From positions 658-64,657 of the IMG/VR virus record IMGVR_UViG_3300036985_005342: a DNA stretch of 64,000 bases; one strand, given 5' to 3'. The notes under the pieces were generated by a model that saw nothing but the letters and a program-made list of their open reading frames with translations, had not been told where the DNA came from and ran no database searches. Every line of letters begins with the position of its first letter. Position 1 is the first letter of the stretch. The position numbers and the translations under genes were made by a program. The DNA is from a virus (taxonomy: Duplodnaviria; Caudoviricetes). This document shows, piece after piece, positions 2,926 through 33,062 of this stretch.

Positions 2926-3663
2926 ATGAAAGCAATCCAAACAAAATACCTCGGAGTAACCGACACTAAACCATCGCGCATCAAGGCTTCAGCCGAGGGC
3001 GTGCGTCCCGCAACCTACACGGCCGACTACCTCGACCAGCTCGCCGACCTCGACCACCTCAACCGGCACGAGCGGGCGGCGCACTGCTTCGCCCTTTCCC
3101 GCAACTGGCCGACCAACCTCGCCAGCGGCGGACTGCCGGACGGGACTTATGCACACTGCTTCTTGCCGGAGGAAAAACCGCTCGACAAGCTCCAGCAGCA
3201 TGTCACCGGCAAGATCGAGCAGGGTGAGGCCGAGCCGGTTGTGGAGATCCCAGCCTTGCCGGAGACTGACAACCAGAAGCAGCAAGCTTATCTCGACTTT
3301 GTGAATAACTATCTGACGACGGAAGTTTTCGCCGAGCGGTATCAAATCACCACGGACGAGGCCTCGAAGCTGATCGCGGCGGGGCGCAATATCCACGAGG
3401 CACGAGCAGCGAAAAGCTTCACCGTGATCGCGGTATCCTCGAACACGAATAGCTTCGGCCTCAAGTCGATCATCCTCCTCGCCGAGGATGGCGAAGCGTG
3501 GGAGATCCTCAAGTCCGCATACAGCGATCCGCTTCCAAAGCGGGGCGACACGATCAAGCGTGCCGGGGGCGTGTTCGCCATCGGTTGCGAGTGCCCGCGC
3601 CGTCTTGCGGATAGTAGCCCAGCCGTGGCGAAGAAAATCATCGCCGAAGCAAAAAGAAAATAA
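2926..3663 (+). CDS. Hypothetical early protein
   Basis: 245-aa ORF starting MKAIQTKYLGVTDTKPSRIKA; CACCACC-ATG leader. Confidence 0.75.
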   Translation: MKAIQTKYLGVTDTKPSRIKASAEGVRPATYTADYLDQLADLDHLNRHERAAHCFALSRNWPTNLASGGLPDGTYAHCFLPEEKPLDKLQQHVTGKIEQGEAEPVVEIPALPETDNQKQQAYLDFVNNYLTTEVFAERYQITTDEASKLIAAGRNIHEARAAKSFTVIAVSSNTNSFGLKSIILLAEDGEAWEILKSAYSDPLPKRGDTIKRAGGVFAIGCECPRRLADSSPAVAKKIIAEAKRK

Positions 3664-6649: not shown

Positions 6650-6999
6650 TTCACATCCCCGACACCAAAAAAGGTCACGGCCTCGTCCTTGTCCGAGGCA
6701 AATACTTCGCCCTTCATTACGAGGACGGCAAGCAGAAACGCACCCCCACGGGGACGGACGACTGGGATACCGCCCTGCGTGCCCGCAACCTCATTTACCG
6801 CCGCCTCAAAAAGGACGGCGCGACGGTTAAGCGCAAGCTCACCCCCGCCGAGAAACTGGCCGCTGGCCGTGCCGATCTCTACATCCATCACCGCCAGCCG
6901 TTCTTGGTTGTGGTAAAGGGCAAGAAAGTCGGCGAGTTTGCAACGCGGAAACTTGCGCGGGAAGCGCGTGATGCTCATCTGGAGAACACAAAGCCATGA
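6646..6999 (+). CDS. Basic putative DNA-binding protein (AP2/integrase-arm-like beta motifs)
   Basis: GKQKRTPTGTDDWDTALRARN and VGEFATRKLAREARD resemble three-stranded DNA-binding modules; no recombinase catalytic domain. Confidence 0.45.
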   Translation: MIHIPDTKKGHGLVLVRGKYFALHYEDGKQKRTPTGTDDWDTALRARNLIYRRLKKDGATVKRKLTPAEKLAAGRADLYIHHRQPFLVVVKGKKVGEFATRKLAREARDAHLENTKP

Positions 7000-7406
7000 A
7001 CACACCTGAGACAGACCATCTTGAGAGCAATTTAGGCAACGCAGCACACCCTGTATTGTCGTCCTTTTGCCGTAAACTCGAACGCGAGCGCGACGAGTGG
7101 AAAGCACTAGCCACGCAATACTCAGGCGAGCGGGAGCATAACGCTATGCAAGCCCTAGCCTACAAAGCCGAACGCGACGAATGGGAATCAAAATACATCC
7201 AGCAAAACAAAGACCTCGGCTGCGAAATGATGGACCCAAACGGGACTATCTGGGATCACGCCAAGACATTGCAACGCGAGCGCGACGAAGCGCGGGGGCA
7301 GCGGGATATGTTGGCGGGAGCTTTGCAGAAAGTTAGCACCTCTTGGAACTTTGTTGAAGTCGCCCGCGAAGCCCTCCAATCCCTAACCCCGAACGAAAAA
7401 CCATGA
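6996..7406 (+). CDS. ERDEAR-repeat coiled-coil protein 1
   Basis: ERERDEW/ERDEARGQRDML...AREALQSLTPNEKP blocks shared with next two genes. Confidence 0.75.
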   Translation: MNTPETDHLESNLGNAAHPVLSSFCRKLERERDEWKALATQYSGEREHNAMQALAYKAERDEWESKYIQQNKDLGCEMMDPNGTIWDHAKTLQRERDEARGQRDMLAGALQKVSTSWNFVEVAREALQSLTPNEKP

Positions 7407-7861
7407 TAACACCAAAAACTAAAGGAGCCGATGCAATCATTGACGCATGGCTGATTGAAGGAGTCCACCCCCCGACACACCAAAAACTAAAGAAGCAACT
7501 GCGACGGGAATGGCCGATGCTCGCAAAGGCCATCGAACGACTGGTGAATGCGGAAGATTCTCCAGAGAACGCTTCAGCTAATGAGAACCGCGAATGGGCT
7601 TTGAAGGCAGAAAAAGAGCGCGACGAGGCGCGGGGGCAGCGGGATATGCTACTTGAGGAACGCGAACAATGGAGGCTATCATCAGTCTGCCGTGAGTTGG
7701 TTGAGCAGCGGGACATGCTGGCGGCGGCTTTGCGTATCGTAGCAGATGGAACAAGCTGCCGCGAGTGTGGAGGCGAGGATCAAGCTCTTATTGCTCGTGA
7801 AGCACTCCAATCCCTATTTTGTGATACCCTCCAATCCCTAACCCCGAACGCAAAACCATGA
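7403..7861 (+). CDS. ERDEAR-repeat coiled-coil protein 2
   Basis: Same blocks plus a CRECGG insert. Confidence 0.75.
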   Translation: MITPKTKGADAIIDAWLIEGVHPPTHQKLKKQLRREWPMLAKAIERLVNAEDSPENASANENREWALKAEKERDEARGQRDMLLEEREQWRLSSVCRELVEQRDMLAAALRIVADGTSCRECGGEDQALIAREALQSLFCDTLQSLTPNAKP

Positions 7862-8172
7862 ACACACCAAGAATGCAGGAAGCATGGGATAAATCCTCAA
7901 GAACGGCTGATGGATTTTATTCATCCCAAACTCCTGCGAGCGAATACGCTACTAGTTGCTATGACGAAGGATGTAAGCTAGAACGCGAGCTTGCCGATGC
8001 AATCCGCGAGCGCGACGAGGCGCGGGAGCAGCGGGACATGTTGGCGGCGGCTTTAATAAATTGTATGCCATTCATCTCAGGAGAAGGATGCGGAGAATAC
8101 AGTGACGCTAAACTAGCCCTCCAATCCCTAACCACGAACGCCGAGCCCATCCACGGCGAGAAACATGCCTGA
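7858..8172 (+). CDS. ERDEAR-repeat coiled-coil protein 3
   Basis: Same blocks; C-terminus reads into the attC-like site at 8133. Confidence 0.75.
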   Translation: MNTPRMQEAWDKSSRTADGFYSSQTPASEYATSCYDEGCKLERELADAIRERDEAREQRDMLAAALINCMPFISGEGCGEYSDAKLALQSLTTNAEPIHGEKHA

Positions 8173-8218
8173 ATACACAATCGAGCTTATCGCCGTTGGA
8201 TGCGGCGATTTGTTCATC
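8133..8218 (-). mobile_element. Integron attC-like recombination site 1 (86 bp)
   Basis: + strand folds GAAC/GTTC, 5/5-nt unpaired spacer, GCC/GGC, bulged C8203, CATCCA/TGGATG, bulged T8196, CGGCGA/TCGCCG. Confidence 0.75.
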
Positions 8219-8247
8219 CTCTTCCGAACTACCGACCAACCCCAATC

Positions 8248-8457
8248 ATGCCAAAATACAGCCTATCAGCACAAATCACCGTCTCCGCATTCTGTGAGGT
8301 CGAAGCCGACTCACCAGAGGAAGCTATCGAAAAATCCCAATCCATGGGCGCGGTGATCCACTCCTACAACACTGGAACGTCCCCGAAAGAATCATGGTGC
8401 GTCGAAGAGATCGACGGCGAACCCGTGGAAATCTCCGCCGAGGAAATTCTTCGATGA
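8248..8457 (+). CDS. Hypothetical acidic protein lying between two attC-like sites (cassette cargo)
   Basis: 69-aa ORF MPKYSLSAQITVSAFCEVEADSPEEAIE...; stop lies within GATGAAC of site 2. Confidence 0.7.
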   Translation: MPKYSLSAQITVSAFCEVEADSPEEAIEKSQSMGAVIHSYNTGTSPKESWCVEEIDGEPVEISAEEILR

Positions 8458-8509
8458 ACACCCAAGATCAGGCGCGGCGATAGCCGTCTCCTGTATCGAC
8501 CTGTTCGAC
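8453..8509 (-). mobile_element. Integron attC-like recombination site 2 (57 bp)
   Basis: + strand folds GAAC/GTTC, unpaired spacer, GAT/ATC, bulged T8494, CAGG/CCTG stem, bulged T8487, CGGC-GATA-GCCG. Confidence 0.7.
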
Positions 8510-8510
8510 A

Positions 8511-8540
8511 GCCCTCTCCCCTTTCGGGGAGGGGGTTTTT
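8511..8540 (+). terminator. Intrinsic terminator ending the early operon
   Basis: GCCCTCTCCC-CTTTC-GGGAGGGGGT followed by T run, at convergence with the prim-pol gene. Confidence 0.75.
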
Positions 8541-10804
8541 CATTTCAACCTCTTGAGATCCACTGAGAGCAAGACCCCGCGCAATGTCAGAAAACTATCG
8601 ACAGCAACATCGGGACTGACCTTGGAAAACACGCCAGACTTGCACAATGATTCGACAGCTTTCTCGAAAGCGGTCACGGCACCAAGCCGGTCACTGGCAA
8701 AGCTAGAATTGTTGATTACAAACTTCTTGAGGACGTGGAGAGGTATGAGATTCGCCTCCGGCGCAGTCTTCCGGTTGAAGCCCATCTTGAGCCGGTCGGC
8801 ATGTGGCAGTTTTGAGATCGTCTTGCACGCCTTCAGGATTTCAAGTTCCTGCTTTACTTGACCGGAACCGACCTCGCCTGTATCGAAGCGGGCTAGGATC
8901 GCAGCGTCAGTCTGCTCGACAAATCGGATCGCCCATAGGGCGTGTTCCTTGCGGATGAGGGGGGTGTGGAAATCCGCCGACACGGCGAGCAGGGTAGCGA
9001 TACGGACAACCTTGAGACCGGCGCGGTTGATGACCTCCTTCTTGGCCAAGCCCTCGGAACAAGCCATGATCTCGGCGCGTTTCGTGTTTCGGTAGTCCCG
9101 GAGGATCTCGCTGGCTTCCTTCGAGGACGCGACCGAATCGTAGTGACCAGTAGCATCCGCCGTGTCCATCATCAGCGCAAGCTGCTCCAGACGCTCCACA
9201 AGCTCTTGTGGCGGCTTTGCGCCGTGCCGGGGGTTCTCTTCCAACGACCAGCTCGAAAGCGGCACGTCGAGGAGAATGAAGCGTTGCAGGAATCCCGTGG
9301 CCAGTTCCCTTGTGGTCATCGACCCGTAGAGCGATTCCGGCGTGGCCTCCCCGGCTAAACTAAGGCAGGGACGCTCGATGCAAACCTTCTCGTCGCTTGA
9401 GTTGGCCTTGCGCCGACCTTCGGAGCTGCCGCCCTGTCCGGCAGAGTTGAAGGAGTTCAGCAACCCGCGTGAAAGGGTTTTCGTGTATTCCTGAGCGTTG
9501 GGGTTAGCAAGGTTCTTGAACGTGTCCCCGAACTCGGGGATGTATGAAATGTAGCGGAAGGTATCTTGAAACACCGTTTCCAGACCCGGCCCGGAAACGA
9601 TCTCGCCGCCAAAGATGCGCCGGATCGACGGGTTCTTCTTCGAGACCGCCGTGATGAGTCGCTTCATACCGTTCTGGTATTCATCCTTGCCGCAGGAAGT
9701 TCCACCCACGAGGACGAGCCACAGGTTGAGACCGGACTTCGTGGGGGTAAGAAAGCCGCGCCCCGCGATCCCACTCATCAACATGAGGGAGGCGAGAAGA
9801 GACGCTTCTTGGAGGGGCAGGTAGGATGTGGAGAATGAATACCGCGCCATGTCTTTGACCAAGCCGTCCGGTAAACTCTCGATCAGATTGTCGTTGCCCT
9901 TGGCGGGGATTACATCTACTACGTCCGTAGTAGTTTCCTCCGAGAAGTCAAGTTGAATCCGCTTATTCCGAGCCTCTTCGCGAGCTTGACTTGAACGGAT
10001 TTTCCTGATTGTCCTGTTCACATACCCGTCGAAGCCGTGACCCGCTTTCTTTGCGGCACGCTCTTCATTCCACATGCCGGAGTGACCGAAAAACCATCTC
10101 ACTTGATCGTTGGATTCGGTCAGATCGCAAAGCATCGCGATGAAAGCGTGGTCGGCTGTGGAGTGGTCGTTGTGAAACTCCTCGAACTGCTCCCAGCGTC
10201 CGCAGCATAGTTCGGAAAATTTCAGGAAACGGTCACAGCCCATGTCGAAGACGGTCTGGTCGGGGATCTGGGACTTGTATTCCACAAGCTCGACCTCGGC
10301 GTGGCCGTGACCGCCACCGAGCCAAGTGTGGATCGACTGGAGATCCGCATCATTTACTACGTTTATGGTAGATCGGCCATCTACTACGTCTCCAGTAAAT
10401 AGGCAGAAGCGGTTTTCTTTGAAGAGACCTGCCGCAGGGAAAGCGGGGTGCTTGCCGGAGCCGTTGAAGTTCCCCTTGCAAATGACGTGGACACCATGAC
10501 CGCCGACACTGCGCTGGGCGTATGAGGCGATACGCTCCAGAACCCGTTGCTGGTCTTCGTCATCGGGATCGTCCAAGTCGATGAAGACGTAGGGGTCGGT
10601 CGAAGCAAAGCAGAAGCCAAGATGCTGCCGCTTGCCGGATTCCACATCCTTCAACGCTGCGCGATAGGATCGCCAGTCGCGGGGGCGGTTGGATGCGGCC
10701 ATCGAGTCTGTTCCGGGTGTGTAGGGGACTTTTCTTGCCTCCTCAACATCGAAACAGACCCACTGCTGGAGCTTCTTCAGCTCCTCGGGGATGTGGTCAA
10801 ACAT
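8540..10804 (-). CDS. Primase-polymerase (NrS-1-like prim-pol N-terminus) with C-terminal DUF3987-like NTPase
   Basis: IPEELKKLQQWV, KVPY, VFIDLD, SVGGHGVHV, FCLFTG, DHSTADHAF motifs; P-loop-like GGTSCGKD. Confidence 0.85.
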   Translation of the reverse strand: MFDHIPEELKKLQQWVCFDVEEARKVPYTPGTDSMAASNRPRDWRSYRAALKDVESGKRQHLGFCFASTDPYVFIDLDDPDDEDQQRVLERIASYAQRSVGGHGVHVICKGNFNGSGKHPAFPAAGLFKENRFCLFTGDVVDGRSTINVVNDADLQSIHTWLGGGHGHAEVELVEYKSQIPDQTVFDMGCDRFLKFSELCCGRWEQFEEFHNDHSTADHAFIAMLCDLTESNDQVRWFFGHSGMWNEERAAKKAGHGFDGYVNRTIRKIRSSQAREEARNKRIQLDFSEETTTDVVDVIPAKGNDNLIESLPDGLVKDMARYSFSTSYLPLQEASLLASLMLMSGIAGRGFLTPTKSGLNLWLVLVGGTSCGKDEYQNGMKRLITAVSKKNPSIRRIFGGEIVSGPGLETVFQDTFRYISYIPEFGDTFKNLANPNAQEYTKTLSRGLLNSFNSAGQGGSSEGRRKANSSDEKVCIERPCLSLAGEATPESLYGSMTTRELATGFLQRFILLDVPLSSWSLEENPRHGAKPPQELVERLEQLALMMDTADATGHYDSVASSKEASEILRDYRNTKRAEIMACSEGLAKKEVINRAGLKVVRIATLLAVSADFHTPLIRKEHALWAIRFVEQTDAAILARFDTGEVGSGQVKQELEILKACKTISKLPHADRLKMGFNRKTAPEANLIPLHVLKKFVINNSSFASDRLGAVTAFEKAVESLCKSGVFSKVSPDVAVDSFLTLRGVLLSVDLKRLK
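9916..9933. promoter_or_regulatory. YTACY-N8-AGTAR palindrome inside prim-pol gene
   Basis: CTACTACGTCCGTAGTAG; reverse complement differs by 1 nt from the site at 1946. Confidence 0.6.
10354..10398. promoter_or_regulatory. Second tandem pair of the palindrome (27-bp period) inside prim-pol gene
   Basis: TTACTACGTTTATGGTAG (10354-10371) and CTACTACGTCTCCAGTAA (10381-10398). Confidence 0.6.
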
Positions 10805-15720: not shown

Positions 15721-17357
15721 CCTTCAACGACCGCCAATACCAAGACGACATTTACAATGCCGTCTTTGAATACCTCTTCGAGAAAGAAGGCAATCAGGTT
15801 GTCGCCAGCCCCGGCGGCACCGGCAAGTCGCACGTGATGAACCGAATCATCAAAACGCTTGTGACGAAGTGGCCGGGAACCCGCGTGATCTCCCTCGTGC
15901 ATGACGCGAAGGTGATCGGCCAGAATCACGCCTCCATGCTGAAGTATTGGCCGAAGGCTCCGGCAGGGGTCTATTCCGCTGGCCTCAAGCGCAAGGAAGC
16001 CCACTTCCCTATCACCTTCGCAGGGATTCAATCTGTGGCCAAGAAGGCCGAGCAGATCGGCAAGCTCCACATCATCATCGTCGATGAGTGCGATCTCGTA
16101 TCCCCCAAGGAGGAGACCCTTTACCAACGATTCATCACTGACTGTCAGAAGCTCAACCCCGCCCTCCGGGTCATTGGTTTCACCGCAACACCCTACCGCC
16201 TCGGTATGGGGTGCCTCACGAACAGCGACCTGTGGGACGAGATCAGCATTGACCTTACCCGCACCGAAAAATTCAACTGGTTCGTCGAACATGGATACCT
16301 GACCCCGCTGGTCACGAAGCGGGCTTGCGCCGAGATCGACATCACGAACATCTCGATGCGTGGCGGCGAGTTCGATGAGAAGGAAATGCAGGAAGCTGCC
16401 GACACCGACGAGCTGAACGCGGCTGTGGTTTCGGAGTGCATCAAATACGGCCATGACCGCAACCACTGGCTCGTATTTGCCTCCGGTGTAAAGCACGGCC
16501 ACAAGATCGCCAAGATGTTCAACGCCCGAGGCGTGCCCGCCGTGATGCTCTCCGGCGCGGACTCGATGGAATACCGTGAGGAGATGGAGGAACGCTTCCG
16601 TGCCGGTGAGTTCCGTGTGCTGGTCAACGTCGGTCTCTACGGACGCGGCTGGGACTTCCCTGCACTGGATCTAGTTGCTTGGGCACGAGCCACCCAGTCG
16701 GTCGCTTTGTGGGTGCAGGGTAACGTGAGGCTTACCCGCATCCATCCTGATAAGCGCAACGGCCTCGTGCTGGATTTTGCAGGTAACACCCGCCGCCTCG
16801 GGCCGGTCAATGATCCAGTTGTCCCCGCACCTCGGCGCAAGGGTCAGGACGTGAAGGGGGAGGCACCTGTCAAGGAGTGCCCCCAGTGTTACAGTTATCT
16901 CCACACGCGCACGATGGTTTGCCCAGATTGCGGCTATGTCTTTCCCCCGCCGAAGAGCATTGAGAAGAAAGCTGCTAACGAGGAAATTATGAAGCAGGCG
17001 GCTCCGGTCGAGCCTGTCATCGAAGAGTTTGTCCCTCTCGGCGTTAGGTTCAAGCCTATGGTTTCCAAGAAGGGTCTTTCCTATCTATCGGTCGGCTACT
17101 CCATAGGCACCTACACCTTCAACGAGGCCATCTTTTTCCATAGCGGCTCCATGCGCCATCTCAAGCTCTGGTGGGAACATCGTAGCGGAAAATTCCCGCT
17201 GCCCACATCCGCGCAAGAAGCCGCCGACCGTTCCGGCGAACTCCGCACGCCTTCCTTAATCCGTGTGGACGTGACCCCGCAGAATAAATATCCCAAAGTT
17301 TTGGGTTGCGAGTTCGGGGAAACCCCGGATGATGCCGACGACATTGAACCTTTCTAA
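15717..17357 (+). CDS. Superfamily 2 helicase (RadD/YejH-like) with zinc finger
   Basis: RQYQ, PGGTGKS, DECD, FTATPYR, GWDFP, LDFAGN, CPQC...CPDCG. Confidence 0.9.
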   Translation: MTFNDRQYQDDIYNAVFEYLFEKEGNQVVASPGGTGKSHVMNRIIKTLVTKWPGTRVISLVHDAKVIGQNHASMLKYWPKAPAGVYSAGLKRKEAHFPITFAGIQSVAKKAEQIGKLHIIIVDECDLVSPKEETLYQRFITDCQKLNPALRVIGFTATPYRLGMGCLTNSDLWDEISIDLTRTEKFNWFVEHGYLTPLVTKRACAEIDITNISMRGGEFDEKEMQEAADTDELNAAVVSECIKYGHDRNHWLVFASGVKHGHKIAKMFNARGVPAVMLSGADSMEYREEMEERFRAGEFRVLVNVGLYGRGWDFPALDLVAWARATQSVALWVQGNVRLTRIHPDKRNGLVLDFAGNTRRLGPVNDPVVPAPRRKGQDVKGEAPVKECPQCYSYLHTRTMVCPDCGYVFPPPKSIEKKAANEEIMKQAAPVEPVIEEFVPLGVRFKPMVSKKGLSYLSVGYSIGTYTFNEAIFFHSGSMRHLKLWWEHRSGKFPLPTSAQEAADRSGELRTPSLIRVDVTPQNKYPKVLGCEFGETPDDADDIEPF

Positions 17358-21238: not shown

Positions 21239-21436
21239 ATGTTTGGCTACTCCGACGAATTTCTAGGCACAGTTACGCCGCCTCTTTCCCGCGACAAGGC
21301 GGTTGTGGTCGCCGCGATCCTGAAGCATTCGATCAGCTACCCGCACCATGAGGAGATCAAGGTGTCGGTCGATTCGGGGAACCGGATGCTGTGGCTGAAC
21401 GGGATTCTCTATACGTTCAAGGAGCTGGGGTTTTAG
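21239..21436 (+). CDS. Small hypothetical protein
   Basis: Start MFGYSDEF at 21239; ends at convergence with late region. Confidence 0.55.
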   Translation: MFGYSDEFLGTVTPPLSRDKAVVVAAILKHSISYPHHEEIKVSVDSGNRMLWLNGILYTFKELGF

Positions 21437-24400
21437 AACCTGATCCAGTTGTATTCAGGCTCTTTCTTCTCGGTCTTTTCCCAAGGTGTCCGCACACCCA
21501 CACCGAAGAACAGGGCTGTGGCCAGCACTGAGCCGTCACGGACTCCATGCGTCTCGAAGATGTTCACCAGATCCTCGACGATGATCGGTTCCAAAAGTTG
21601 ACGGGTGAAGCTGGTTGGGGTCATTGCGATGTCGCCAAAATGCTTCTGGGTGATTGTGTCGAGGATCATCGCCATGTTGATGTTCTCGCGGTTCCTCACG
21701 AAGTCGTAGAGAGAATCGCGGAAGTCCTGCTTGCCGAAACCGATGGAGCCTTCCCCACGGAGCGGGATGACCTCTCCCTTGGAGTTCAGCTTGTAGCCCA
21801 TGATGCCCTGCGCCAGCAGGTTGATGTAGGGGCGCATACCGCCGCCGAGGTCGATCATGGTGCCCTTGTAACTGATCCCGCCGAACTTGCCGGATGTGGG
21901 GTTCCACACGATGTCTTCCTCCTCATCGTCCGGCGTGATGGCACGCACGATGCCCACGATGACCGTGCCGAGGATAGCGCGGCCTACAATGGCCTTTCCA
22001 TAAACATCGGCAGCGACGGTTGCCCGGATCTTCATCGTGCCGTCAAAACTCGCTCTGCGCGTCCAGATCGGCTCAAGGGCATTCATCTTGGCGCGGCTGA
22101 CCGCCCACCGAGCCGAGATCGTCACCGTGTTGGCAAGGGCGAGGCCAGCATCGAGGCTGGGATTTTTGAGCGAACCACGGCCAGTCGCGTTCATCACGGC
22201 GTTGCCGATGATTGCAAGCTCATCCTTCGAGGGGTTGCCTTCGTCGCGGATTCCCTTCTCGATGAGCGTGTCGGCCATCTGGGCGCGGGTGAGGTTCGTG
22301 ACGATGCGGTTGAAGCGTTCCACACCGAGGCCAAGCTCAGTGACCCAGCGGAGGGGGATGAACTTCGGCAGCTTCTTGTTGATGGTCTCCATCAGCTCGG
22401 GGTCGATTGCATCGGCCTCCTGCATTCTGTCGAGATCGGCGAAGGGACTCATAAACCGGAGATCCATTCGCTTATCGTAAACGGAGTTGGGACGGTCGAT
22501 GACATCGTTGTAGTAAGCGATCTCCTTGTCGCGGCTGAACATGCCGGAGAAAGCCTTCGCAAAGGTTGTGGTGACTTTGATCGGATTGGCCCAAGCGCGG
22601 AGCGTGTAGAAGTAGGCTTGGCGCATACCAATACCAAGCTCGAAGCCAAGCGTGGTGATCTTGCGGAGCTTGAATGCCCCGCCGACGTAGTGCCAGAAAC
22701 GCTGGCTCGCGCTCATGTTAGCGATGGCATATTTCCGACCTTCCTCCAACCATTCGGCCTTTGCTTTCGCCTCGTCGATCTTGGTCTGGGTGAGTCGGGA
22801 ATCCTCTTTGGTGTCCCGCTTCACGGCCTTCGCGAAGTCGCCAGCGGCCAAACGCCTCTCGTAATTTTCCTTGCGTTTCTTCGACGCGGCGATCATGCGC
22901 TGGATGCGCTTCTCTTCAGGGCTGGTAGGCTTGAGCGCATCTTTCTTGAGCTGGTCGAGGGTTGCACGCAGGCTAACCACAGTGGCCTTGAGGTTGCGAA
23001 CTGCCGGGTCGGTGGACTCGGGCTTTTTGGCACGCTTCGAGAAGTCGCGCTTGGCGATCCGTGCGTTGAGGTCGGCGATGGTCTTGTTGAGCTGCACGAT
23101 GGCACGCCTGCGGGCGATCACTTCTGGCGGGGTCAGGATGCGACGATCCTTCTGGATCTCGCGCACGGTGTCGCGGAGACGGTCACGGGTAGCCATCATC
23201 TCTTTCAACACGCTGTTGAGGGTCGGAGCCACGCCCTTAGCTGTGGGTGGGTAGGTGCCATTTTTGATGAAATACTCGAAGCGTTCGATGGACTTATTAA
23301 CCGAATCGTAAAGTCGATTTGTTGCGATCTCAGCGGCGGTCTTCTTGGGGTTGCGGGCTTCCTGCGCGATGCGCTTGGCCTCACGGAGGGATTCCAGACG
23401 CTCGCGCTTCGCCTTTAGCTCAGGGCTGTCCAGCTTGACCTTCGTAGGCTTGTCGAGGATCTCACCGCGCATCTCCGCTTCCAGCAGGTTGATCTGGCGG
23501 TCGAGCATCTTGGAAGCGCGTTTGATCTGCGCTTCGAGGGAGATTTTCTTGCTGTCGATGCCGAAGATCGCCCTGTATTCTACCAGCATTTCATCACGAC
23601 GTTTTTTAAGATCGTCGAGGATTGGATCTGTCACCGGATCACGCTTAGGGCGGTCGATGCGGATACGTTCATCAATCGCATATTTCATGTCCCTGAGTTG
23701 ATTCTCAAGTTGCCGCTTGATAGCGTCACGCGCACCTGCAAGGCGGGTCTTCTTATCTTGCTCCTCGGTGTAGTTCATCCCTGCGTCAATCATCGCCTGC
23801 TTGATCTGCTTCATCAATGAGCGGACGGGCGATGTGGTTGGGTCACGAGGAAGTCCCGTCTTCTTGGGGAAGAAACCTTTGGCGATGTCAAGGAGTTGTG
23901 CCCCGAGACGTTCAACAACTTTGAGTTCGCGGATGTCAACTTTGAGTTGCTCCTGAGAGACATTCTTGACCCGCCCATAATTTGTGAACGCAACCACAAC
24001 CTCTTCGCGGGTGAGGTTTGGGTAATCGTTCTGGAGGAGCTTGGTGACAGCGTCCAGCACTGCTTCACCTTTGAGACCTTGGCGCATGAAGCCGAGGGCC
24101 ATATTATAGACCATCTTTTCACTGATACCCTTACTTGGGTCGATGAGCGAGGAAAGCTCCTGCGGGGTCTTCTGGCGTGCCGTCGAGGCCAACTTCGCCA
24201 GCTTGTCCTTGGCCAATCCGAAGACTGTTTCGGCCTGATCGCGAAACTCCTCACCGAACTCACTCACGAGCTTCTCGGTGAACGCTTCAATGGTCTTGGC
24301 ATTACCGGCGAGGTATTCCGTGCCCACGTCCGAGAGCGCGTCGAGGATCTCGACTTGGGTAGATTCGGAGTCTTGGAAGAGAGTATCAGCTTCCCAAACT

Positions 24401-27400
24401 ACCTTACTGCCATTGTAATTATCAGTCGTGATGGATGTATAGCCAACACTTTCGGCATGTGTGATAAGTGCTTTTCTTTGAGACGGCGTGAGTGTGTTTT
24501 TACTTTCACCAAAATCGACGTAGAGATTATTACCATCAACCACAACTCTTGCGAAGCCTGATTGTAAAGCAACTTGGAGAGCTTTGTTGATGTCTTGACT
24601 ATTGCCTTTTTCTTTCAAAGCAATCTGCGCTTTGTATGCGTGGGTTTCATCAGAAGCCAACTCCAAGAAATTACCGCTTCGATCAAGTAAAGCAGCGACT
24701 TTCTTTTTTGGGGTTTCGGGAAGCTGACTCAACCGCGTCACCCCCACCCCCATCGCCCGCAGACGATCACGCGCCGACGTGGCGACAGCAGCGGCTTTCT
24801 CGACCAGCACGCCACGAGGTTTAGTGGGCTTCCTCTCCTTCGCCACATCTTTTTCTTTTTTGGAGATAATGGCGGCAGCTTCCTCACGATTATACTTGTC
24901 CTCAAGCTCCTTCATCAGACGCTCACGCTCCTTGATGAGTTCGAGGATCTTCTTGGATTGCTTCTCAGTGTCGCGCATTTCTGCCGGGGTGAGCGGGTCT
25001 TTCGCCTGCCCCGGTTTCTTCCCGGTGTTTTTCCAGATCGCACGGCGGCGGAGCATCGCATCCACGCTGTAAACTTCGTTGGCCACAAGCTTCATCGCCT
25101 GCAAGGCCAGACCGGCGCGGGAGCCTTGGAGCTGGGTGATGTTGACGAGGTCTTGGAAGTCGGCGAACAGGGCTTCCTGAAGCGTCTCGAATGCCTTCCG
25201 CTTCTGCGTCTCACCGGGATCAAGCTTCGTGATCTTGTTGTCGAGATCCTTGAGTGCCTTCTGAATCTCGAATCCGTGAATGGCGAGCAGCGCGACCTCG
25301 ACCTTGTTGGTGCCCCTGTTGTCGCCCATCAGATCCAGCACAAGCTCTTGGCCGACAAGCGCGGACTCATCTCCCTTATCACGCTTCGCCAATCGAGCAT
25401 ACGCCTCATCAAGAGACTCCTCATCGGTCATGCGGACAACCATCCCTTGCCGCTCGGGGATACCGTAACGCCTACGGGCAGCGTCAAGGTCTTCACGCTT
25501 CACGCCGAAGGGGAGCGGTGCCGGGATTTTCCGTGCTGGGATCTTGCGTTTGGGCGCGGGCTGTGGTTTGGCTTTCGTTTCGGCTTTGGGCTTCGGTGCC
25601 TGACGCTTGATGTCAACGGGGAGAACAATAGGCTTCTTACCTTCGGCTTCCAGCTTTGCTCCTCGTGAAAGGAGGTCGTTGAAAATCTTCTCAATGTTCG
25701 GCGGGATGTCGATGTCAACGCTGCTGCCTTTGATGCCCTTGTAGATGTTGAGCATGATCTCGGCGATACGTGCAAACGCACGGTCAACCGATTCCACACC
25801 CGTCTTCACACCGTTGATAACAAAACGCTCAAAGCCTCGGGCGATATATTCACGCTTCTTGCGCCAGTCATCGCCGACGTTCTCTTTGGCCCACGCTTCA
25901 AGCGCATCGGCTTTTTCACCTTCACCGATCTCACGGAGGAAATCTTCGATGGCGTGACCGGCCTCGTGAATCCCTGTTGTGGTGTCCGCTTTGCCCTCGA
26001 TCAGCCCGAGGACTGTGTTGCTGACGTTCTGCGCTGCCGCTACGGCCTTGGGGGTGTAGGTGCCTTTGGGTCCTTCAGTGTCTTGGAAGAGGATGGACCG
26101 GGATTCTGGATTAAACCGCTGCGAGAGCGGGATCACGTTGCCTTGCTCGTCGTAGGTGACGGGGTCGGCGGATTTGATGTTTTCCGGGGAGAAGACAGCA
26201 AAGGATGTAATCACCCCATTACCACTTTCACTTTCGTAGTATCCGTCGTAGCCAAGGTCTTTCAGGCTTTGCTGGACTCTCGCGTCCTCAAATACCCCAT
26301 AATCTGCTTGGTTGATTTCCTGTTTGGAAATGCCGGTTTCCTTAGCAAGTAATTCAACTTGCTTGGTGTCCTTGGGATCAAAGTATCTCCCTTTAGTGAG
26401 CAGGTTGAGGACGATGGGTTCTGTGGATTCGTAAGGCATCTGATCGCCTTCACGATCCACTATGTCTCGAACATTTGCCGCTGCTGCATTTGCGAAATCC
26501 TCTGCAATTTCTTTGTCTGCGGTGAGGTGCGCTGCAACACCACGGTAGCCTTTGGGGACAGTGAATTTATACGCTGTTCCGTGATACCCTCGAATGATGA
26601 ACCCCGCAGCCCTCGCCGCCTCATCCACCATCCGCTGCGCCATCTCCATATCCCCCGCCTCGACGGCGGCGAGATAGGCTTGGTCATCTACACCAACTTC
26701 TGTATCTTGGAAAAGAGTCCCTTGCTCTCCGCCAGCGGCACGTCCCTCTTGAGTCCGCGCACCAGTTCCTTTGCCGCTTCGTCCGTTTCCGCGTCCTCCC
26801 CCGGAACGTAGCCCATCAGATTGATTCCCGCTATCTTCGACAGAGTAAGTGGATGTCCTGTTCCAAGAAGTGCCACTATCCCCGAGACCAAGTTCGGGTT
26901 GTTGATACCATGAGGGGAAAGAATATCCTCCACCTGCTTCGTAAGCTCTTTGCCTGATTGTTTCATACGATTCCTTTGTTCTTCCGCGTGAGAAATTATT
27001 CCACATTTCACGGAGCTGGTCAACTTTTCCCGTATTCCGTTTGAAAGCCGCCGGGAAGATGTCGCGGATGGCTTCCCATGTGACGCTCTGCATCTCGGAA
27101 GGCTTGACCCCGCGCTTCTTGGCGGCAAGGCGATAGGCTTCGGTGATGAAGGCGTAGGTTCCACGATAGCCGTCCGTAGTGATCCCGCCGAAGTTATCGG
27201 TAACTTCTTTGGCCGCACCGGACAGCGGCATCATATAGACCACAGCGACGGCGTGGGTGTCGCTCGTCACGGTCACGTCCGAGTCAGGGTTGATGATGTT
27301 GTTGTAGAAACTGCGGATCTTGTGGGCGTGACCGAGTTCCTTGGATATGTTGTCGAGCGACGGATTCTCAAGCATGGAAACCGCCGAGGCCGTCATGTGG

Positions 27401-30400
27401 ACCGTGCCCCAAGCGATTTTGGTGGGTGAACCGTCCTTGTTGATGTGGTCTTTCCCGAAACGCCCGTCGGGGGTAATCATCGCATAGGATCTGGGATTGT
27501 AGGTCTCATCGTAAAGGCGGATGAAAAAAGCTTTATCGAGGATACCGAGATCCTCGAACTTGCGCCCCGTCAGTTCCTTGAGACGCTGCCCATGCTCGAA
27601 GAGTTCTTCGCGGACACCGTCAATGATGAGATACTTCTTGCCCTTGGCCTGCTCCTTCTGTGCCGCGTCCATCTTGGCGGCGGCGGCTTGCATCTCGGGG
27701 CCAAACACATCGGTCTTGCGGTTTTTGCCTGTCCAGATGTCTAGCACGCGCTCGGCGAGAGATACATTCTGGAACCAGTCTTTCTGGGGCGACAAAGCGG
27801 CGATCACACCGGCGACAGACTCGGTGGAAACGGCATACTGTTCAGACCACATGTTAGCGATCCTGTTGGCCCCCTTATACCACTTCTTCGACTCGGTGCG
27901 GATGTTCTCAGGCACACTGTCATACACGAAGAGAATGTTATCCGTCATCTGCTTGAGGATTTTCTTACCGATCTCCTCAATGCTCAGGTTATCCAAGCTG
28001 CCCGCACGGAAGACGTGATGGCTCATAAGGCGTTTAACAATCTTCGTAAACGCCGCCTCGTTGGCCTTGAGCTTGCGGTAGGAAAGATCGCTCGCCGGAG
28101 CCTTGTCCGTGCCTTGTTTCGCAGGGATCTCCGACTGGGGTTGTGGCGTGTGGGTCTCAGGAAGCTGTTCGAGCGTATCCATCCCCACCACACGAGCGGC
28201 CACACGATCCACAGGCTTGCGCTTGATGTCATCCTGCATCGGCGAGGCGTTGGTGCTGGAAGGGAGTGCTGCACGACGACCATTTACGTTGCGGCGAAGA
28301 TCGGACAGCATGGTCAGGCGGCGGTTGTCGGCACCCCCCGTCAGACGGCGAAGTGTGGTATCATCGAGTTTCTCGGTGACAGCCATCATGTCGCTCGGAC
28401 TGACACGCGCCAGCACGTCCACAATCTCACGAGCGGAAAGCTTGCTCTTCTGGATGTTGCGGACAACCATGTTTCGCTGCTCCTTCGAGAGAGAGCTTGG
28501 GACAGTCCCAGCGGTGCGCTCAACACCTTGGAACAGCTCACCCTGCACAAGGCTGGGCTGGGTCGTTGGAGCCTCCTGCCCCGGCAAACTGGCCGGACGG
28601 GTGCCAGCGGCAGCAAACACCAACAGTGCGGCGTTCACATCGTTCGGGTTCTCGATGACCGCTCTGGCGATGTCCTCGATAGGGGCGTTGCGGAGGTCTT
28701 TTTTGTCCTCAGTCTTGTCCACCGTAACTGCTTCAGCCTTAGGTTGTTGCGCTGGTTTTGGGGAGGGCTTTGTCCCTACTTCTTGACCTTCACCTTCCCG
28801 CTGTGCAGCTCCTTTTTGAGCTTGGCCTTCTGCTGCGGGTTGAGCGGGCTGTTTTTGCTCAGGAGCAGGCCGACCTGTTTTTTCGATTTTTCTTTCATTG
28901 GTTGTTGGGGTTGTGAGTTGTGGTGTGGCGGGTTTTTGCGCGGAAGGTTGCGCGGGATTTTCATCAACCAACGCCTTGTCCTGCGCCTCCATAGCGTCGT
29001 AGTCAACTTCCGGGGTGTAGATCATCGTCTCGCCATCTTCCTGCAACTCAAAACCCTGTTTTGAATACCAGTTGATGAGCGTAGGCTTCGACATCTCATC
29101 CGAAGGTTCAACCGTGAGTGAGATCGGTAACTGCTTCTCATCGGCCACACGCTTCAAATCGGTGATAGCCGCTGTGGCACGACCCTTTCTTTGCTGCGAC
29201 TTGTCAGTGGTGATCCCGAGAAGTTGGATACCGGATTTGTTCTCTTCCACGCGAAGGTCAACGCCGTTGGTTTTTGCAGCAGTGGCTACCGCCGCAACCC
29301 CTCCCGCCTCTGGAGAGGGCGCGGTCGGCACAGCCGCAGTCGCGGTGGGTGTGGTGGGTGCAGGGACCACAACCGGCTCACTAGCAGCACCCGGCTGCTG
29401 AGATTCTTTGGCGAAGACAATGGCTTTGACCTTCTTGACAAAGCTGGGGGCCATACCTTTCCAGTTCTTGTCGAAGTCCTCTTCGGTCCAATCGAGAACC
29501 TCTTCGGCGGCACCAAGTTCTTCGAGTTGCTTTGCTTTCGCAGCGCGGGCCGGATCTACTGCCGGTGTGGTTACTGGAGGCGTAGTATTTTCCACTTTGG
29601 CTTTCTCACCCACAACCTTCACCGGCTTCAGATCAAACCCATAGCGATCAGCCACAGCCTTGTGATCCATGTTGTCCCCAACGTTCGCTTCGAGGAAGTC
29701 GAGTTCCTCCTGCTCCTCCTTGGTGAGTTCTTGCGGGCGATCTGAAAAATTGACAGCCTCCCCCGGCATTGGCTCACGACCTTCTTTTTTGCGAAGAAGA
29801 TCGGACCGTCTCTTGGAGGCCGCTATTTCAAGTCCCCTGTTAGAAATGAGTTTCAGCTCCACACCCCACTCCCCGGCAAGTTCTTCCGGCGCGGCCTCGG
29901 CCAAGGTCTTCTTCTCCTCGGGGTCCTCGGTCAGCTCGATCTGCGCGGCTCTTTCGCGTTCAATTTCTGCCAAGCTAACTGGGCCTGATGTCGGGAAAGC
30001 CCTTCCCGCTGTTTCAGCTTCAGGAAGGTTTTCTTGGGTGGCACGGGCGGTGTATTCTTCATCGGATAGGTCATGGAGTTCTTCGGTAGTCTTGTCGCGT
30101 GTGGAAAGGTTTTTAACGTCGCCAACGAGAGTGATTGTCCCTTTTGTTCCAGCAATACTGCCGGAGGCAAAAGCAGTGGCGATGATTGTATCGCCGATGG
30201 CTTTGCGGACCTGCTCGTCCGTCATGTCGGGATTGAGCTGCTGCTGGACGTGGACAGCGTCAAGGGCTGTGATGAGGCTCTCCTCGAAAGCTTCCGAGAT
30301 CGGGGCGAGCGCAAAGTTGTCAGCAGCTCGCAGCACAGCGGCAGAAGCGGATTTGGCGAAGGCTTCCCGTGTGGCTTTTGACGCAAGGGCCTTGCCCATA

Positions 30401-31866: not shown

Positions 31867-31874
31867 GAGTGTTT

Positions 31875-33062
31875 TTACCGCAATTCGGGAACATTCCAAG
31901 GACTATTTGAAGGGGGTGTGGTCGTCGATCCAGTCATCCCGAACTTCTTCTGCGCGTAATTCCATACGCGTTTACGTGCAGCTTTTCCAGCCGGACTGAG
32001 GCCGGGAACCTTGTTGACATACTCATTTTCTTCCATGTTGGAAGCAGATGTCAGCTCGTTTGACACCTTATCTTTTTCGTAAAGTTTGGCTTCTTCAACT
32101 TGCTGAGATGTTGGATTCTTTCCAACGGGAGGAGGGAAGAAGGTCTTGTTGTCAAACAGTCCCAATGTTTCTTTTTCCTCTGCTGTGGTCGAAGGTGCCT
32201 TTGGCGCATCAGGTTTCGCAGTAAGGCGCATCTCCTCATCCTTCAGCTCTTGGCTTCTGACTTCAGCGTTGACCCGCGCCTCGCCTTGGAGAGCAGGGTC
32301 TTTCAAGTCCATTTCCACTCTTGCACGCTCCTCGCGAGTTTTACGAAGATTGTCGGGTGCCGGAGTTTCCGCAGGACTGAGCATATCAGCGGAGGACGGA
32401 ACCTGCCGGGGCAATCTTGGGTTTTGATCTTCCACATCAGCTATGATGTTTTTAGACCGAGTATCGGCGGCATTATCTTTGACACCGAACAGGTTACGGG
32501 CACCTATCATATTACCCTCATCGCGCTTGAGTTTTTCGTTCGCCACGATCTCAGGATTGTTAATTGGCGTTCCTGTTCCTGTTCCTGTTCCTGTTCCTGT
32601 TCCTGTCCCATCACCATACCGCTCACCGAACCGCAGTAAATCCTCCGCACGCTTACGCTTTTCCTCTTCAGCCGCAGCTTGCTCAGACTCAAATTGAGAC
32701 TCAAGCAGTCCCATTTTCCGGCTCTGGATGTCCCGAGAAAAAGCATCATTGGCAGAAATTCTTGATTGTGTCTGCTGATCCAAACCATACCGGCGATCCG
32801 ACTCGAAGGCGGAGCGGTTGAAACGCATGGCATCTTCCATGTCCTGCTGCGTGTTCTCGGCCCTGCGCTGCATCAGGTTTGTCTCCTGCTGACGCATGGC
32901 GAAAAGGTCCCGTTCCTGTGCGAGCTGCTTGTCGGCCATCGAACGCCCGAGCGAAATCGCTTGGTTCATAATGCTGCTAATTGCCTCGGGACCGGCACGC
33001 AGAAGACCCTCAATGGAGTTCGAGCCATTGTTCTGAAACATCTGGATTGGTGATAGAGCCAT
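31875..33062 (-). CDS. Putative internal virion/ejection protein
   Basis: 395 aa, Q/R/E-rich helical N-terminus, (GT)n linker; position. Confidence 0.6.
   Translation of the reverse strand: MALSPIQMFQNNGSNSIEGLLRAGPEAISSIMNQAISLGRSMADKQLAQERDLFAMRQQETNLMQRRAENTQQDMEDAMRFNRSAFESDRRYGLDQQTQSRISANDAFSRDIQSRKMGLLESQFESEQAAAEEEKRKRAEDLLRFGERYGDGTGTGTGTGTGTGTPINNPEIVANEKLKRDEGNMIGARNLFGVKDNAADTRSKNIIADVEDQNPRLPRQVPSSADMLSPAETPAPDNLRKTREERARVEMDLKDPALQGEARVNAEVRSQELKDEEMRLTAKPDAPKAPSTTAEEKETLGLFDNKTFFPPPVGKNPTSQQVEEAKLYEKDKVSNELTSASNMEENEYVNKVPGLSPAGKAARKRVWNYAQKKFGMTGSTTTPPSNSPWNVPELR
32569..32609 (-). repeat. (GGAACA)n hexamer repeat encoding Gly-Thr
   Basis: (GTTCCT)n on + strand, about six units. 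Confidence 0.85.

Follow-up and report, generated by a model that had tools for sequence, protein, structure and literature searches.

Integrons are known as bacterial devices. Filamentous phages of the CTX-phi type borrow the XerCD recombinases of the host, which act on a folded single-stranded site, and the whole phage integrates at dif. T4-type phages carry promoter/stem-loop cassettes to which a shuffling of modules is attributed, by way of proposed small circular intermediates; these cassettes bring promoters with them and would act through homologous recombination between repeats. In sedentary chromosomal integrons such as that of Vibrio cholerae, a homogeneous repeat of ~95 bases, with AAC/GTT at its base, a spacer, bulges and a variable top, recurs in co-oriented arrays that adjoin intI and have complementary facing 7-mers (PMC5371416, Loot/Nivina et al. 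2017; PMC4889954). Total attC length is given as 57–141 bp, with only 3 nucleotides of the cleavage site conserved (PMC5371416), and a cluster of at least two close attC sites lacking an integron-integrase, with no intI nearby, is termed a CALIN (Cury et al. 2016, PMC4889954). According to recent preprints, chromosomal integrons serve as stores of cassettes for defence against phages. In phages themselves, clusters of attC sites were described for the first time in 2023, and as rarities: Qi, Rajabal, Ghaly, Tetu and Gillings (2023, PMC9892861) give 17 CALINs in 10,705 NCBI phage genomes searched with general attC models, state that five of six phage attC sites recombined with IntI1, and propose recruitment by a bacterial integrase.

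Here we analyse a stretch of phage DNA of 64,000 nucleotides (the window) from a record of 64,657 bases that is rated 81% complete. A sequence-only reading had noticed two hairpins at the end of an early operon and taken them for attC sites that bound a single-gene cassette, exchanged by a host integron integrase acting in trans; the observation is confirmed, and its interpretation largely supported, by the comparisons reported below. The features concerned are as follows.

7858–8172, + strand: third ERDEAR paralog, 104 aa (open reading frame; junction comparison)
8133–8218, + strand: element 1, attC-type site of 86 bp, its folding (bottom) strand on + (model R1; consensus fold)
8139–8458, + strand: predicted 320-bp cassette, comprising the rest of element 1 and the cargo gene (two predicted crossovers)
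8165–8356, + strand: small ORF whose start lies within the element 1 loop and overlaps the upstream stop (ATGCCTGA)
8248–8457, + strand: cargo gene, 69 aa, small viral protein of unknown function (phrog_10718, E 6e-5)
8453–8509, + strand: element 2, short attC-type site of 57 bp, its bottom strand on + (model R1; relatives)
8511–8541, no strand assigned: terminator-like G+C-rich hairpin with a T run (sequence; stem in the fold of 8420–8560)
8540–10804, - strand: convergent DNA primase/helicase gene, 754 aa (phrog_3022, E 1.3e-120; DUF3987)

Phage attC clusters are already published; what is new here is that they are matched to a host, inverted and read through by translation. Like the CALINs of Qi et al., which also occur in virulent phages, the locus has at least two attC-type sites in a phage without intI; the part of that report available to us mentions neither a Verrucomicrobia phage nor a site that matches a host attC family in sequence (PMC9892861), whereas the present sites are homologous to the attC repeat that the host itself carries, recur as arrays, lie inverted to the genes, and are translated through and locked in codon phase. 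They differ from chromosomal integron repeats in that the variable top of the phage copies is a gene junction (types A and B) or, in the 57 bases of element 2, a 4-base loop, and in that they sit in a phage operon whose genes are on the bottom strand. With the T4-type cassettes they have in common that repeated structured elements border small early genes in a plastic phage region, but they are members of a family that integrases recognise, and their breaks fall at a single defined bond. As in the CTX-phi type, a phage without its own recombinase would offer a folded single-strand site to a host tyrosine recombinase; the unit moved, in contrast, would be a gene cassette inside the phage genome.

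The primase/helicase gene marks the position of the elements as inside a phage genome. It matches 426 phage records, all at below 60% identity, and its best match in cultured phages is 28.8% identical; near relatives of the phage were found neither by DNA in cultured phages nor by primase or cargo protein in viral contigs. The terminator-like hairpin at 8511–8541 lies where the early operon ends and is common to the convergent primase gene. The phrog_10718 match of the cargo gene starts at residue 17 of an ORF spanning 8200–8457. Its product has seven homologues, of 51–93% identity, and the atlas places it among viral hypothetical proteins, DpnD/PcfM being the one lead and a weak one. A second context for the cargo gene was sought without result: no relative appeared in the metagenome scan, the viral contig scan returned one remote AT-rich phage only, without sites, and tblastn against cultured phages gave nothing better than E 0.2. 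Rfam matches within 7000–9500 were limited to two at chance level (E 3.8 and 6.2). An ORF of 3488 aa raised the possibility of a hairpin promoter for a virion RNA polymerase, but it matches only phrog_3842, of unknown function, and that reading is therefore unsupported. No PF00589 or TIGR02249 match, and no tyrosine recombinase, was found in the whole record, extending to all 64,657 bases the earlier statement that the window lacks IntI. An integrase is also absent from nine of ten related phage records, one of them rated 100% complete, so the enzyme would have to come from elsewhere.

The two elements follow one plan, as the sequence-only reading had recognised and the model alignment bears out. 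Element 1 runs from the left 7-mer CACGAAC (8133–8139) to the right 7-mer GTTCATC (8212–8218), with AAC at 8137–8139, GTT at 8212–8214 and the predicted crossover between 8138 and 8139. At its base AACG (8137–8140) pairs with TGTT (8211–8214), and unpaired spacers of 4+4 bases (8141–8144 and 8207–8210) lead to helices of 3 bp (8145–8147/8204–8206), 6 bp (8148–8153/8197–8202) and 5 bp (8154–8158/8191–8195), interrupted by the bulges C8203 and T8196; the loop, 8159–8190, contains ATG 8165 and the upstream stop TGA 8170–8172. In element 2 the left 7-mer is GATGAAC (8453–8459; predicted crossover between 8458 and 8459) and the right GTTCGAC, with AAC at 8457–8459, GTT at 8503–8505 and an R box of 8453–8460/8502–8509. 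Its spacers (5+4 bases; 8461–8465 and 8498–8501) are followed by the helix GAT 8466–8468/ATC 8495–8497, a bulged T8494, the helix CAGGCG 8469–8474/CTCCTG 8488–8493 with one mismatch, a bulged T8487, and a top of CGGC 8475–8478/GCCG 8483–8486 around the loop GATA 8479–8482.

Measured against integron attC sites, both elements have AAC/GTT triplets at the hairpin base, paired in the consensus fold and in the model alignments, and an unpaired central spacer, and their 86 and 57 bp lie within the attC length range. Their 7-mers, CACGAAC/GTTCATC and GATGAAC/GTTCGAC, fit the RYYYAAC/GTTRRRY consensus only at AAC/GTT, which is a weak criterion since only three nucleotides of the cleavage site are conserved. 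Each element has two extrahelical bases, with a spacing of seven positions, on the 3' arm of the + strand (C8203 and T8196; T8494 and T8487); on that arm canonical attC sites have T and G. The elements are co-oriented and 229 bp apart, and with no intI in the record the pair fits the definition of a CALIN. The facing 7-mers GTTCATC (8212–8218) and GATGAAC (8453–8459) are perfect complements, as had been pointed out, and the own-site R-box match is 2/4 in both elements. In integron cassettes the reading frame is on the top strand, upstream of its own attC; here the cargo gene, like all of the early operon, is on the side of the bottom strand.

Copies of both elements occur in other viral contigs. 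Six (L047–L052) hold copies of element 1 that are 95–98% identical and have unrelated flanks. Applied to 11 copies from other contigs, RNAalifold gives a consensus identical to the fold first drawn for element 1; the minimum-energy fold of the single sequence is a different one. At one pair of that consensus three sequences have G:C in place of C:G, a compensatory change, and every substitution among the type-A copies falls in unpaired columns. A second loop type keeps both arms of element 1 and has a compensatory pair. Element 2 is 86% identical in L045/L046 and nearly identical to a copy in L214, and its family comprises 20 distinct copies in viral contigs, whose hairpin inserts differ in sequence and all fold. 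The description of the two elements as sequence-unrelated proved slightly too strong, because the CGGC/GCCG core of element 2 is common to the family; that they share a fold stands. Tops differ among type A, type B, host copies and element 2, and the stems are kept. A vestigial-gene reading was rejected, in which GATGAAC with ACCCAAGA would be what is left of the start of a fourth paralog and the 3' arm of element 1 would be a pseudogene derived from an L023-type gene: both stretches are conserved parts of element families.

The 12+12-base stems of element 1 are present in at least 120 stretches of bacterial genomes, where they form an attC family of Verrucomicrobiota (Luteolibacter, Akkermansiaceae, Verrucomicrobiaceae, Prosthecobacter; assigned by the names of metagenome-assembled genomes), and Verrucomicrobiota are the likely hosts of the phage. 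A search for intI in the host had been proposed: the integron integrase TIGR02249 scores above its curated cut-off in three of four host genomes and in none of 14 controls. At three of the five intI loci examined (L190, L191, L193) arrays of 4 to 11 co-oriented copies adjoin the gene; none was seen at L192 or L194. In 149 host copies the spacers are 4–5+4 bases and the same two bulges recur (alignment columns 74 and 81). Of the cells of the inner helix 96.8% are paired, and 6 of its 16 pairs have compensatory changes; its covariation score was reached by 0 of 500 shuffles. The 7-mers of the family are mostly GTTC/GAAC. Complementarity of the distal R box is complete (4/4) in 20/38 host neighbour pairs, compared with 5.4% of random pairs and 9/126 own-site pairs. 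Short copies like element 2 were not seen in the host loci scanned.

From the 149 copies we built a covariance model, R1, which is specific to this family and yields rough E-values: over 64 kb and both strands it placed element 1 at 8130–8221 on the + strand (56.2 bits, E 3.8e-16) and, as second best in the window, element 2 at 8450–8512 on the + strand (21.9 bits, E 1.9e-4). No other match had E <1 except the reverse strand of element 1, and the next unrelated match scored 10.1 bits. The check by attC covariance model that had been suggested thus picked out just the two elements, in the same orientation, with no other part of the window matching. Some of the original criteria, taken alone, are no more than chance. 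Shuffle z-scores are -3.15 and -2.09 for elements 1 and 2; by energy per base they rank 62nd and 189th among 2612 AAC...GTT-closed segments of the window, so that a screen of such hairpins by energy alone does not discriminate; and one complementary 7-mer pair at such spacing is, by our own arithmetic, often to be expected in 64 kb. The significance of both elements comes from the host-derived model and the comparative data.

Related sites form arrays in many uncultured phage contigs, with up to eight sites per locus scanned. Perfect 7-mer complements were found in 14/29 neighbour pairs against 4.1% of 1377 non-neighbour pairs (P 1.5e-12), a count that overstates the number of independent events because the copies share ancestry; 15/29 neighbour pairs are not complementary, and no own-site pair is (0/38). 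Complementarity of facing 7-mers, put forward as the hallmark of a cassette that had existed as a circle, is therefore enriched in both host (20/38) and phage (14/29) arrays. A cassette with a type-B site, ~90% identical in L041, L042, L044 and L045 between unrelated flanks, begins its homology at AAC and ends it at AGCGAAC, the complement of its own GTTCGCT. Homology among the element 1 copies likewise begins at AAC, so that in relatives homology breaks off at the AAC where the AA/C crossover is predicted (the slash marking the bond), as the earlier prediction required. The limits of the cassette at 8139–8458 are set by analogy with this type-B cassette. No sign of another cassette was found to the right of element 2, where the nearest GTCGAAC of the + strand is at 16284, as expected by chance.

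Orientation separates the phage sites from those of the host. Phage frames lie on the same strand as the folding strand in 18/25 segments; host cassette frames lie on the strand opposite to that of the phage genes in 39/44, which bears out the statement that the cassette is inverted relative to its gene. Of 48 phage sites, 38 have their AAC in codon phase 0, against a background of 37–42% (P 3e-9 to 2e-7, again with copies of shared ancestry inflating the number of independent events), and the upstream gene there reads AAC as a codon and stops inside the site; at a further eight a stop overlaps the AA. The cargo gene ends in the latter way, its TGA (8455–8457) overlapping the AA of element 2's AAC, and the third ERDEAR paralog in the former. 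The conserved end of the paralog (a 17-mer junction motif at 8117–8133, then ACGAAC) runs in frame across the crossover, AAC 8137–8139 is read as a codon and the stop follows 33 nt later, element 1 contributing the last 11 codons (8140–8172, AEPIHGEKHA and the stop); homology at the paralog junctions stops at 8141. The tail NAEPIHGEK.A with its stop also ends three further, unrelated upstream genes (L047, L048, L049), and the type-B gene has a 3' arm within its own coding sequence. Only the first 17–20 codons (MPEYTIELIAVGCGDLF..) of the ORF at 8165–8356 are kept in other copies, where lengths vary from 20 to 132 aa with unrelated tails. This ORF overlaps the cargo gene out of frame, and type-A substitutions, read by eye, alter its amino acids; it is probably a re-initiation start rather than a protein.

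We consider it probable that the hairpins are attC-type sites bounding a single-gene cassette that was placed by integron-type exchange, with host IntI acting in trans. Both are sites of the chromosomal-integron repeat family of Verrucomicrobiota, together making up a two-site CALIN around the predicted 320-bp cassette with which the early operon ends. The phage genes have the + strand as their sense strand, and this is the attC bottom strand, on which attC sites fold and are cleaved between the A and the C of AAC; the phage genes are therefore inverted relative to host cassettes. Arrival of the cassette by strand exchange of the integron-integrase type at AA/C would account for the right 7-mer of element 1 being the exact complement of the left 7-mer of element 2. 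The sites also appear fitted to a translated operon: the upstream gene reads AAC as an Asn codon across the crossover, the site supplies its last codons and stop, and the loop carries a probable restart codon, so that exchange at AA/C would keep the upstream gene in frame. Excision of 8139–8458 would leave a paralog ending in ...TTN-TQDQARR and a stop. Family membership, structure, boundaries, hallmark, inversion and phase-locking are established by the comparisons above; that host IntI acts in trans on phage DNA, and that exchange is still going on, we infer. Integration of the whole phage as one giant cassette was also considered and rejected, the one provirus-flagged record having a single site only.

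The sites may instead be relics, host attC once moved by IntI and now co-opted to act as RNA within the early polycistronic mRNA, be it in translational coupling, in processing or in stability, with no recombination, an account to which we give a minor share of probability. It draws on the position of the sites on the transcribed sense strand, on loops that contain the upstream stop and a restart codon, on the phase-locking of upstream genes to the sites, on G·U/G·T pairs that favour the + strand, and on phages that have no integrase (this record and nine of ten related ones). It leaves unexplained, however, why facing 7-mers are complementary as often as in host arrays, the presence of one cassette in four contexts cut exactly at AA/C, and the conservation in both families of AAC/GTT and two integrase-relevant bulges while the inner stem is free; nor are the RNA and recombination roles exclusive.

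Very improbable, in our judgement, is that the elements are conserved regulatory islands serving as linkers for ordinary homologous shuffling with no site-specific enzyme, on the model put forward for the T4-type cassettes. The region around the sites is indeed a mosaic of 100–160-base modules, a second conserved junction motif, without a hairpin, is common to 38 viral contigs, and four type-A copies have ~20 bases in common past the right 7-mer yet carry different genes, which strict cassette exchange does not predict. But homologous recombination would neither shift the distal four bases to the next site (0/38 own-site against 14/29 neighbour pairs) nor break at one fixed phosphodiester, and the sites are of the same attC family as the host arrays that are linked to an integrase. 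Chance, meaning two ordinary hairpins with a fortuitous 7-mer and GATGAAC as a stop/start overlap like those at paralog starts (ATGAACAC..), could appeal to the modest z-scores and ranks and to the resemblance of ATGAACAC-CCAAGA to the third paralog start, but it is refuted, to the point of being negligible, by the near-identical copies of both elements elsewhere, the stems in bacterial genomes, the model R1 matches (E 4e-16 and 2e-4, the next unrelated at 10.1 bits) and the element-2 family, whose spacer and L box, not a gene start, are what follows GAAC.

Returning to integron-type exchange, a broader joint reading can be offered, tentatively and at somewhat less than even confidence as a whole: that a lineage of Verrucomicrobia phages may build its early operons as inverted integron arrays. 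Sites copied from the host may have become translated gene junctions with the crossover locked in an Asn codon, and in-frame shuffling by a host integrase would therefore be possible. Host IntI could then conceivably shuffle, delete and exchange phage early genes in frame. Such exchange might, no more firmly, take place between co-infecting phages, and possibly with the defence-rich cassette bank of the host. Inversion, by a similarly provisional argument, may ensure that neither cassette pool, that of the phage or that of the host, expresses the genes of the other.

These arrays place, in a set of uncultured phage contigs, host-matched attC sites that carry the same footprint of cassette movement as the host arrays, with reading frames adapted to survive exchange. 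They provide a direct sequence link from an uncultured phage to a host phylum and a natural example of attC sites inside translated sequence, and the type-B gene, which encodes its own 3' arm, is material for the open question of how cassettes and attC sites originate. The sequence comparisons suggest that phages swap early genes with the gene-cassette machinery of their hosts; if the host integrase does act on them, these phages use the adaptation engine of the host for accessory, perhaps counter-defence, genes.

The site closes a rightward operon of small genes, within a source record of 64,657 bases that IMG/VR rates as 81% complete. The record encodes a replication set (DNA polymerase, helicase, primase/helicase and a Cas4-type exonuclease) and a tail-fibre-like protein; DNA and primase comparisons found no close relative among cultured phages. 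A 3488-aa ORF at 21433-31899 (-) has phrog_3842, of unknown function, as its sole family match. The features that concern us here are as follows, the start of the cargo gene being placed at 8248 because the phrog_10718 match begins at residue 17 of a longer ORF.

Features at the end of the operon
6996-7406, 7403-7861 and 7858-8172, +, three overlapping 'ERDEAR' paralogs (ORFs)
8133-8218, +, element 1, an attC-type hairpin
8139-8458, predicted cassette between the AA|C crossovers
8248-8457, +, cargo gene of 69 aa, phrog_10718, unknown function
8453-8509, +, element 2, an attC-type hairpin
8511-8541, strong terminator-like hairpin (sequence and fold)
8540-10804, -, convergent primase gene (ORF)

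The coordinates, 7-mers and lengths that the sequence-only reading gave for the two elements are all correct, and its observation is confirmed. The window by itself hardly sets the elements beyond chance: shuffling gave z-scores of -3.15 (element 1) and -2.09 (element 2), the window has 2612 segments of 48-138 bases closed by AAC...GTT, among which the two rank 62nd and 189th in energy per base, and an Rfam search of 7000-9500 returned no match. The most stable such segment (3103-3240, both strands, 138 bases, -31.1 kcal/mol as DNA) lies within the ORF at 2926-3663 and has no match from the attC covariance model described below. It is comparison with other sequences that makes the case, and on that footing the case is strong.

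Copies in other viral contigs show elements 1 and 2 to be discrete modules that are conserved. Over 8136/7 to at least 8215, element 1 recurs at 95-98% identity in six viral contigs (L047-L052), where flanks on both sides are unrelated and homology begins at AAC in all six. A second loop form, called type B (found in L041-L044, L023, L008 and others), shares the two arms but not the loop. The RNAalifold consensus of 11 copies is exactly the fold proposed from sequence alone, in which AACG/TGTT is followed by 4+4 unpaired bases and by helices of 3, 6 and 5 bp, a bulged C separating the first helix from the second and a bulged T the second from the third; the single-sequence minimum-energy fold falls in another register and so departs from that proposal. 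Between type A (the loop form of element 1) and type B there is a compensatory C:G to G:C change in the 3-bp helix, and all substitutions among the seven type-A copies fall in unpaired columns. Element 2 (8456-8506) is 86% identical in L045/L046, and L214 holds a near-identical copy in a different context; its gapped pattern found 25 stretches in viral contigs, yielding 20 distinct copies including that of the window, with inner hairpins of differing sequence, every one of which folds. A conserved short frame, MPEYTIELIAVGCGDLF(ILF), also starts in the type-A loops (window 8165-8224, +, and L047-L052); it runs to 20-132 aa, its tails are unrelated, and in L047 it continues in frame into the next gene. 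Two further loci may bear on the origin or decay of attC sites: a site at L008 7250-7348 with a CACACG/CGTGTG helix replacing CATCCA/TGGATG, and a type-B gene at L045 2938-3243 that retains the 3'-arm sequence as plain coding sequence without the 5' arm.

Searching with the two 12-base stems of element 1, 20-50 bases apart, we found 16 stretches in viral contigs and at least 120 in bacterial contigs (one genome per species). Among the 80 bacterial matches listed, 77 bear Verrucomicrobiota names (including Luteolibacter, Akkermansiaceae, Verrucomicrobiaceae, Prosthecobacter and Terrimicrobiaceae), one is a Hyphomicrobium MAG and two come from a single further assembly; among these matches, many genomes have several copy-bearing contigs, and an 8-kb locus holds as many as four copies. 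The consensus of 149 host copies has a plan identical to that of the phage elements. Its inner helix is paired in 96.8% of cells (slid controls, at most 56%), with both-sided changes in 6 of 16 pairs (for example G:C/C:G in 20 copies, C:G/U:A in 18 and A:U/G:C in 8), and its covariation score was reached by none of 500 shuffles. Passages of a published account (PMC5371416) describe canonical attC sites as 57-141 bp long, with three conserved bases, extrahelical bases, a central spacer, a variable top and a bottom-strand preference.

A search of the hosts for intI, using the integron integrase profile NCBIfam TIGR02249 (cut-off 265 bits), scored 327-387 bits in three of four host genomes tested; the fourth gave a partial match of 215 bits, and no score among 14 control genomes exceeded the cut-off. 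At one host intI locus (L193), 11 co-oriented copies of the repeat adjoin a divergently transcribed intI, and four copies share this layout at another (L190); unlike these, a third (L191, G003:C218:8000-27999) has five copies downstream of a co-oriented intI. No copies were found at the remaining two intI loci, L192 and L194. Verrucomicrobia are named among the phyla with integrons in passages of Cury et al. 2016 (PMC4889954). The element family is thus the host's own integron attC repeat. Four 'viral' IMG/VR contigs (L053, L054, L056 and L061) hold host-type copies of 89-102 bits, on a par with chromosomal copies, and may be host integron DNA within the viral set or phages with host cassettes. 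Two contigs of Verrucomicrobiota MAGs (L074, L152) carry a phage type-A copy, the MAG here being a Prosthecobacter, and a copy resembling type B. These hint at the genus of the host, or else at prophages or phage contigs that were binned together with it.

A covariance model, R1, was built from the 149 host copies only, so is family-specific and not a general attC model, and was run on both strands of the whole window with filters off. Its top match was element 1 (8130-8221, +, 56.2 bits, E 3.8e-16; 17.1 bits on the reverse strand) and its second element 2 (8450-8512, +, 21.9 bits, E 1.9e-4), these E-values being rough because calibration was shortened. Nothing else in the window exceeded 10.1 bits (E 2) on either strand; the two elements are the only two hits, in the same orientation.

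A cassette circle integrating at AA|C would place the four distal bases of its own R box at the next site, and the right 7-mer of site k would therefore complement the left 7-mer of site k+1 and no longer its own. In host arrays 20 of 38 neighbour pairs show this hallmark; the rate is 5.4% among 20,000 random pairs, and own-site pairs and reversed controls show it in 9 of 126 and 1 of 38 cases. Related phage loci also carry arrays of R1 hits, all co-oriented with the genes.

R1 sites in related phage loci
L008, 5 sites
L029, 8 sites, within a 73-kb record rated 100% complete, all of whose hits lie on one strand over a span of ~12 kb
L045, 6 sites
L021, 6 sites
L020, L033 and L060, 3 sites each

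Across 38 sites of the window and eight phage loci, perfect 7-mer complementarity is found in 14 of 29 neighbour pairs, against 4.1% of 1377 non-neighbour pairs (binomial P 1.5e-12) and none of the 38 own sites; the facing 7-mers singled out in the sequence-only reading are one of the 14. Two hits were moved one base for AAC/GTT register, whereby an L008 pair matched; the unshifted count is 13. Four weak hits were left out: L033 67-131, L033 9286-9351 (hit on both strands, 29% G+C), L029 8074-8127 (other strand, 24% G+C) and L021 1185-1292 (partial). The 15 unmatched pairs may reflect missed divergent sites, mutation or other recombination.

By the limits of its homology, one phage unit behaves as an integron cassette does. 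The type-B unit joins a site to a gene that begins MKKDDERRWMRRLVRWGWF.., the site's 3' arm serving as its first codons, and is ~90% identical in L041, L042, L044 and L045. Homology starts at AAC except in L045, where the 5' arm is missing, and stops in every case precisely behind AGCGAAC, which is complementary to GTTCGCT, the right 7-mer of the unit itself; flanks outside these limits are unrelated. Scans of viral contigs and metagenomes found no second context of the window's own cassette.

Extrahelical bases of attC are carried on the bottom strand's 3' arm. Of 44 segments between sites of host arrays, 39 have their longest open frame on the strand opposite to that of the written repeat; the written strand is therefore the bottom one, on which the phage genes lie, and this bears out the claimed inversion. 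The sites also suit an operon that is translated. Of 48 phage sites, 38 are entered by the longest upstream open frame, which has AAC as one of its codons and ends at a stop 6-90 bases into the site; at 8 more, TGA or TAA overlaps AA. The codon phase of the 38 is shared by 37% of all AAC triplets and 42% of all GAAC in these regions (P 2.6e-9 and 2.1e-7, values that are too small because copies of one element type are not independent). Element 1 supplies the last 11 codons and stop of the third ERDEAR paralog; the tail, NAEPIHGEK.A*, also ends three unrelated proteins (in L047, L048 and L049), and an ATG in the element's loop overlaps the paralog's stop. Both AAC of the window are in the same phase, so removal of 8139-8458 would, as read from the frames, leave the paralog ending ...TTN-TQDQARR*.

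The ERDEAR paralogs (6996-8172, +) are themselves mosaics: modules of 100-165 bases have separate matches, at 75-95% identity, in different viral contigs, and the breaks fall at a junction motif and at the central conserved ..ERDEAR.QRDML.. segment. This junction motif, the 17-mer CCCTCCAATCCCTAACC, occurs three times in the window (7372-7388, 7827-7843 and 8117-8133, +; 0.16 expected) and exactly in 38 IMG/VR contigs (53 copies including the window's). It always forms a gene 3' end (..ALQSLTPNE.P*), followed by C(C/A)GAACG.. and the next ATG, the GAAC having a codon phase identical to that of attC left 7-mers; synonymous variants are scarce in the loci examined, which were chosen by the exact 17-mer. 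It is joined to attC at AA|C in the window (8117-8139) and once in L029, and may be a favoured insertion target.

Profile searches found no tyrosine recombinase in the 64,657-base record, so that the absence of IntI noted for the window holds for the whole record, and none in nine of ten related phage records. Phage attC clusters without integrase are a kind already known, since passages of Qi et al. 2023 (PMC9892861) report 17 such CALINs from 10,705 NCBI phage genomes. The full-text literature matches listed hold no description of phage sites homologous to the host's own attC repeat, arrays of host-type sites across an uncultured phage lineage, a codon-phase lock at phage attC, or phage attC inversion relative to genes, although supplements to Qi et al. 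2023 might bear on orientation. The attC and cassette interpretation is supported by the host-family model hits, the homology starts at AAC and the 7-mer enrichment. As host genomes carry IntI, and as IntI1 recombines five of six attC sites from three virulent phages in the same passages of Qi et al. 2023, the natural inference, and only that, is that a host IntI may act in trans on the phage sites.
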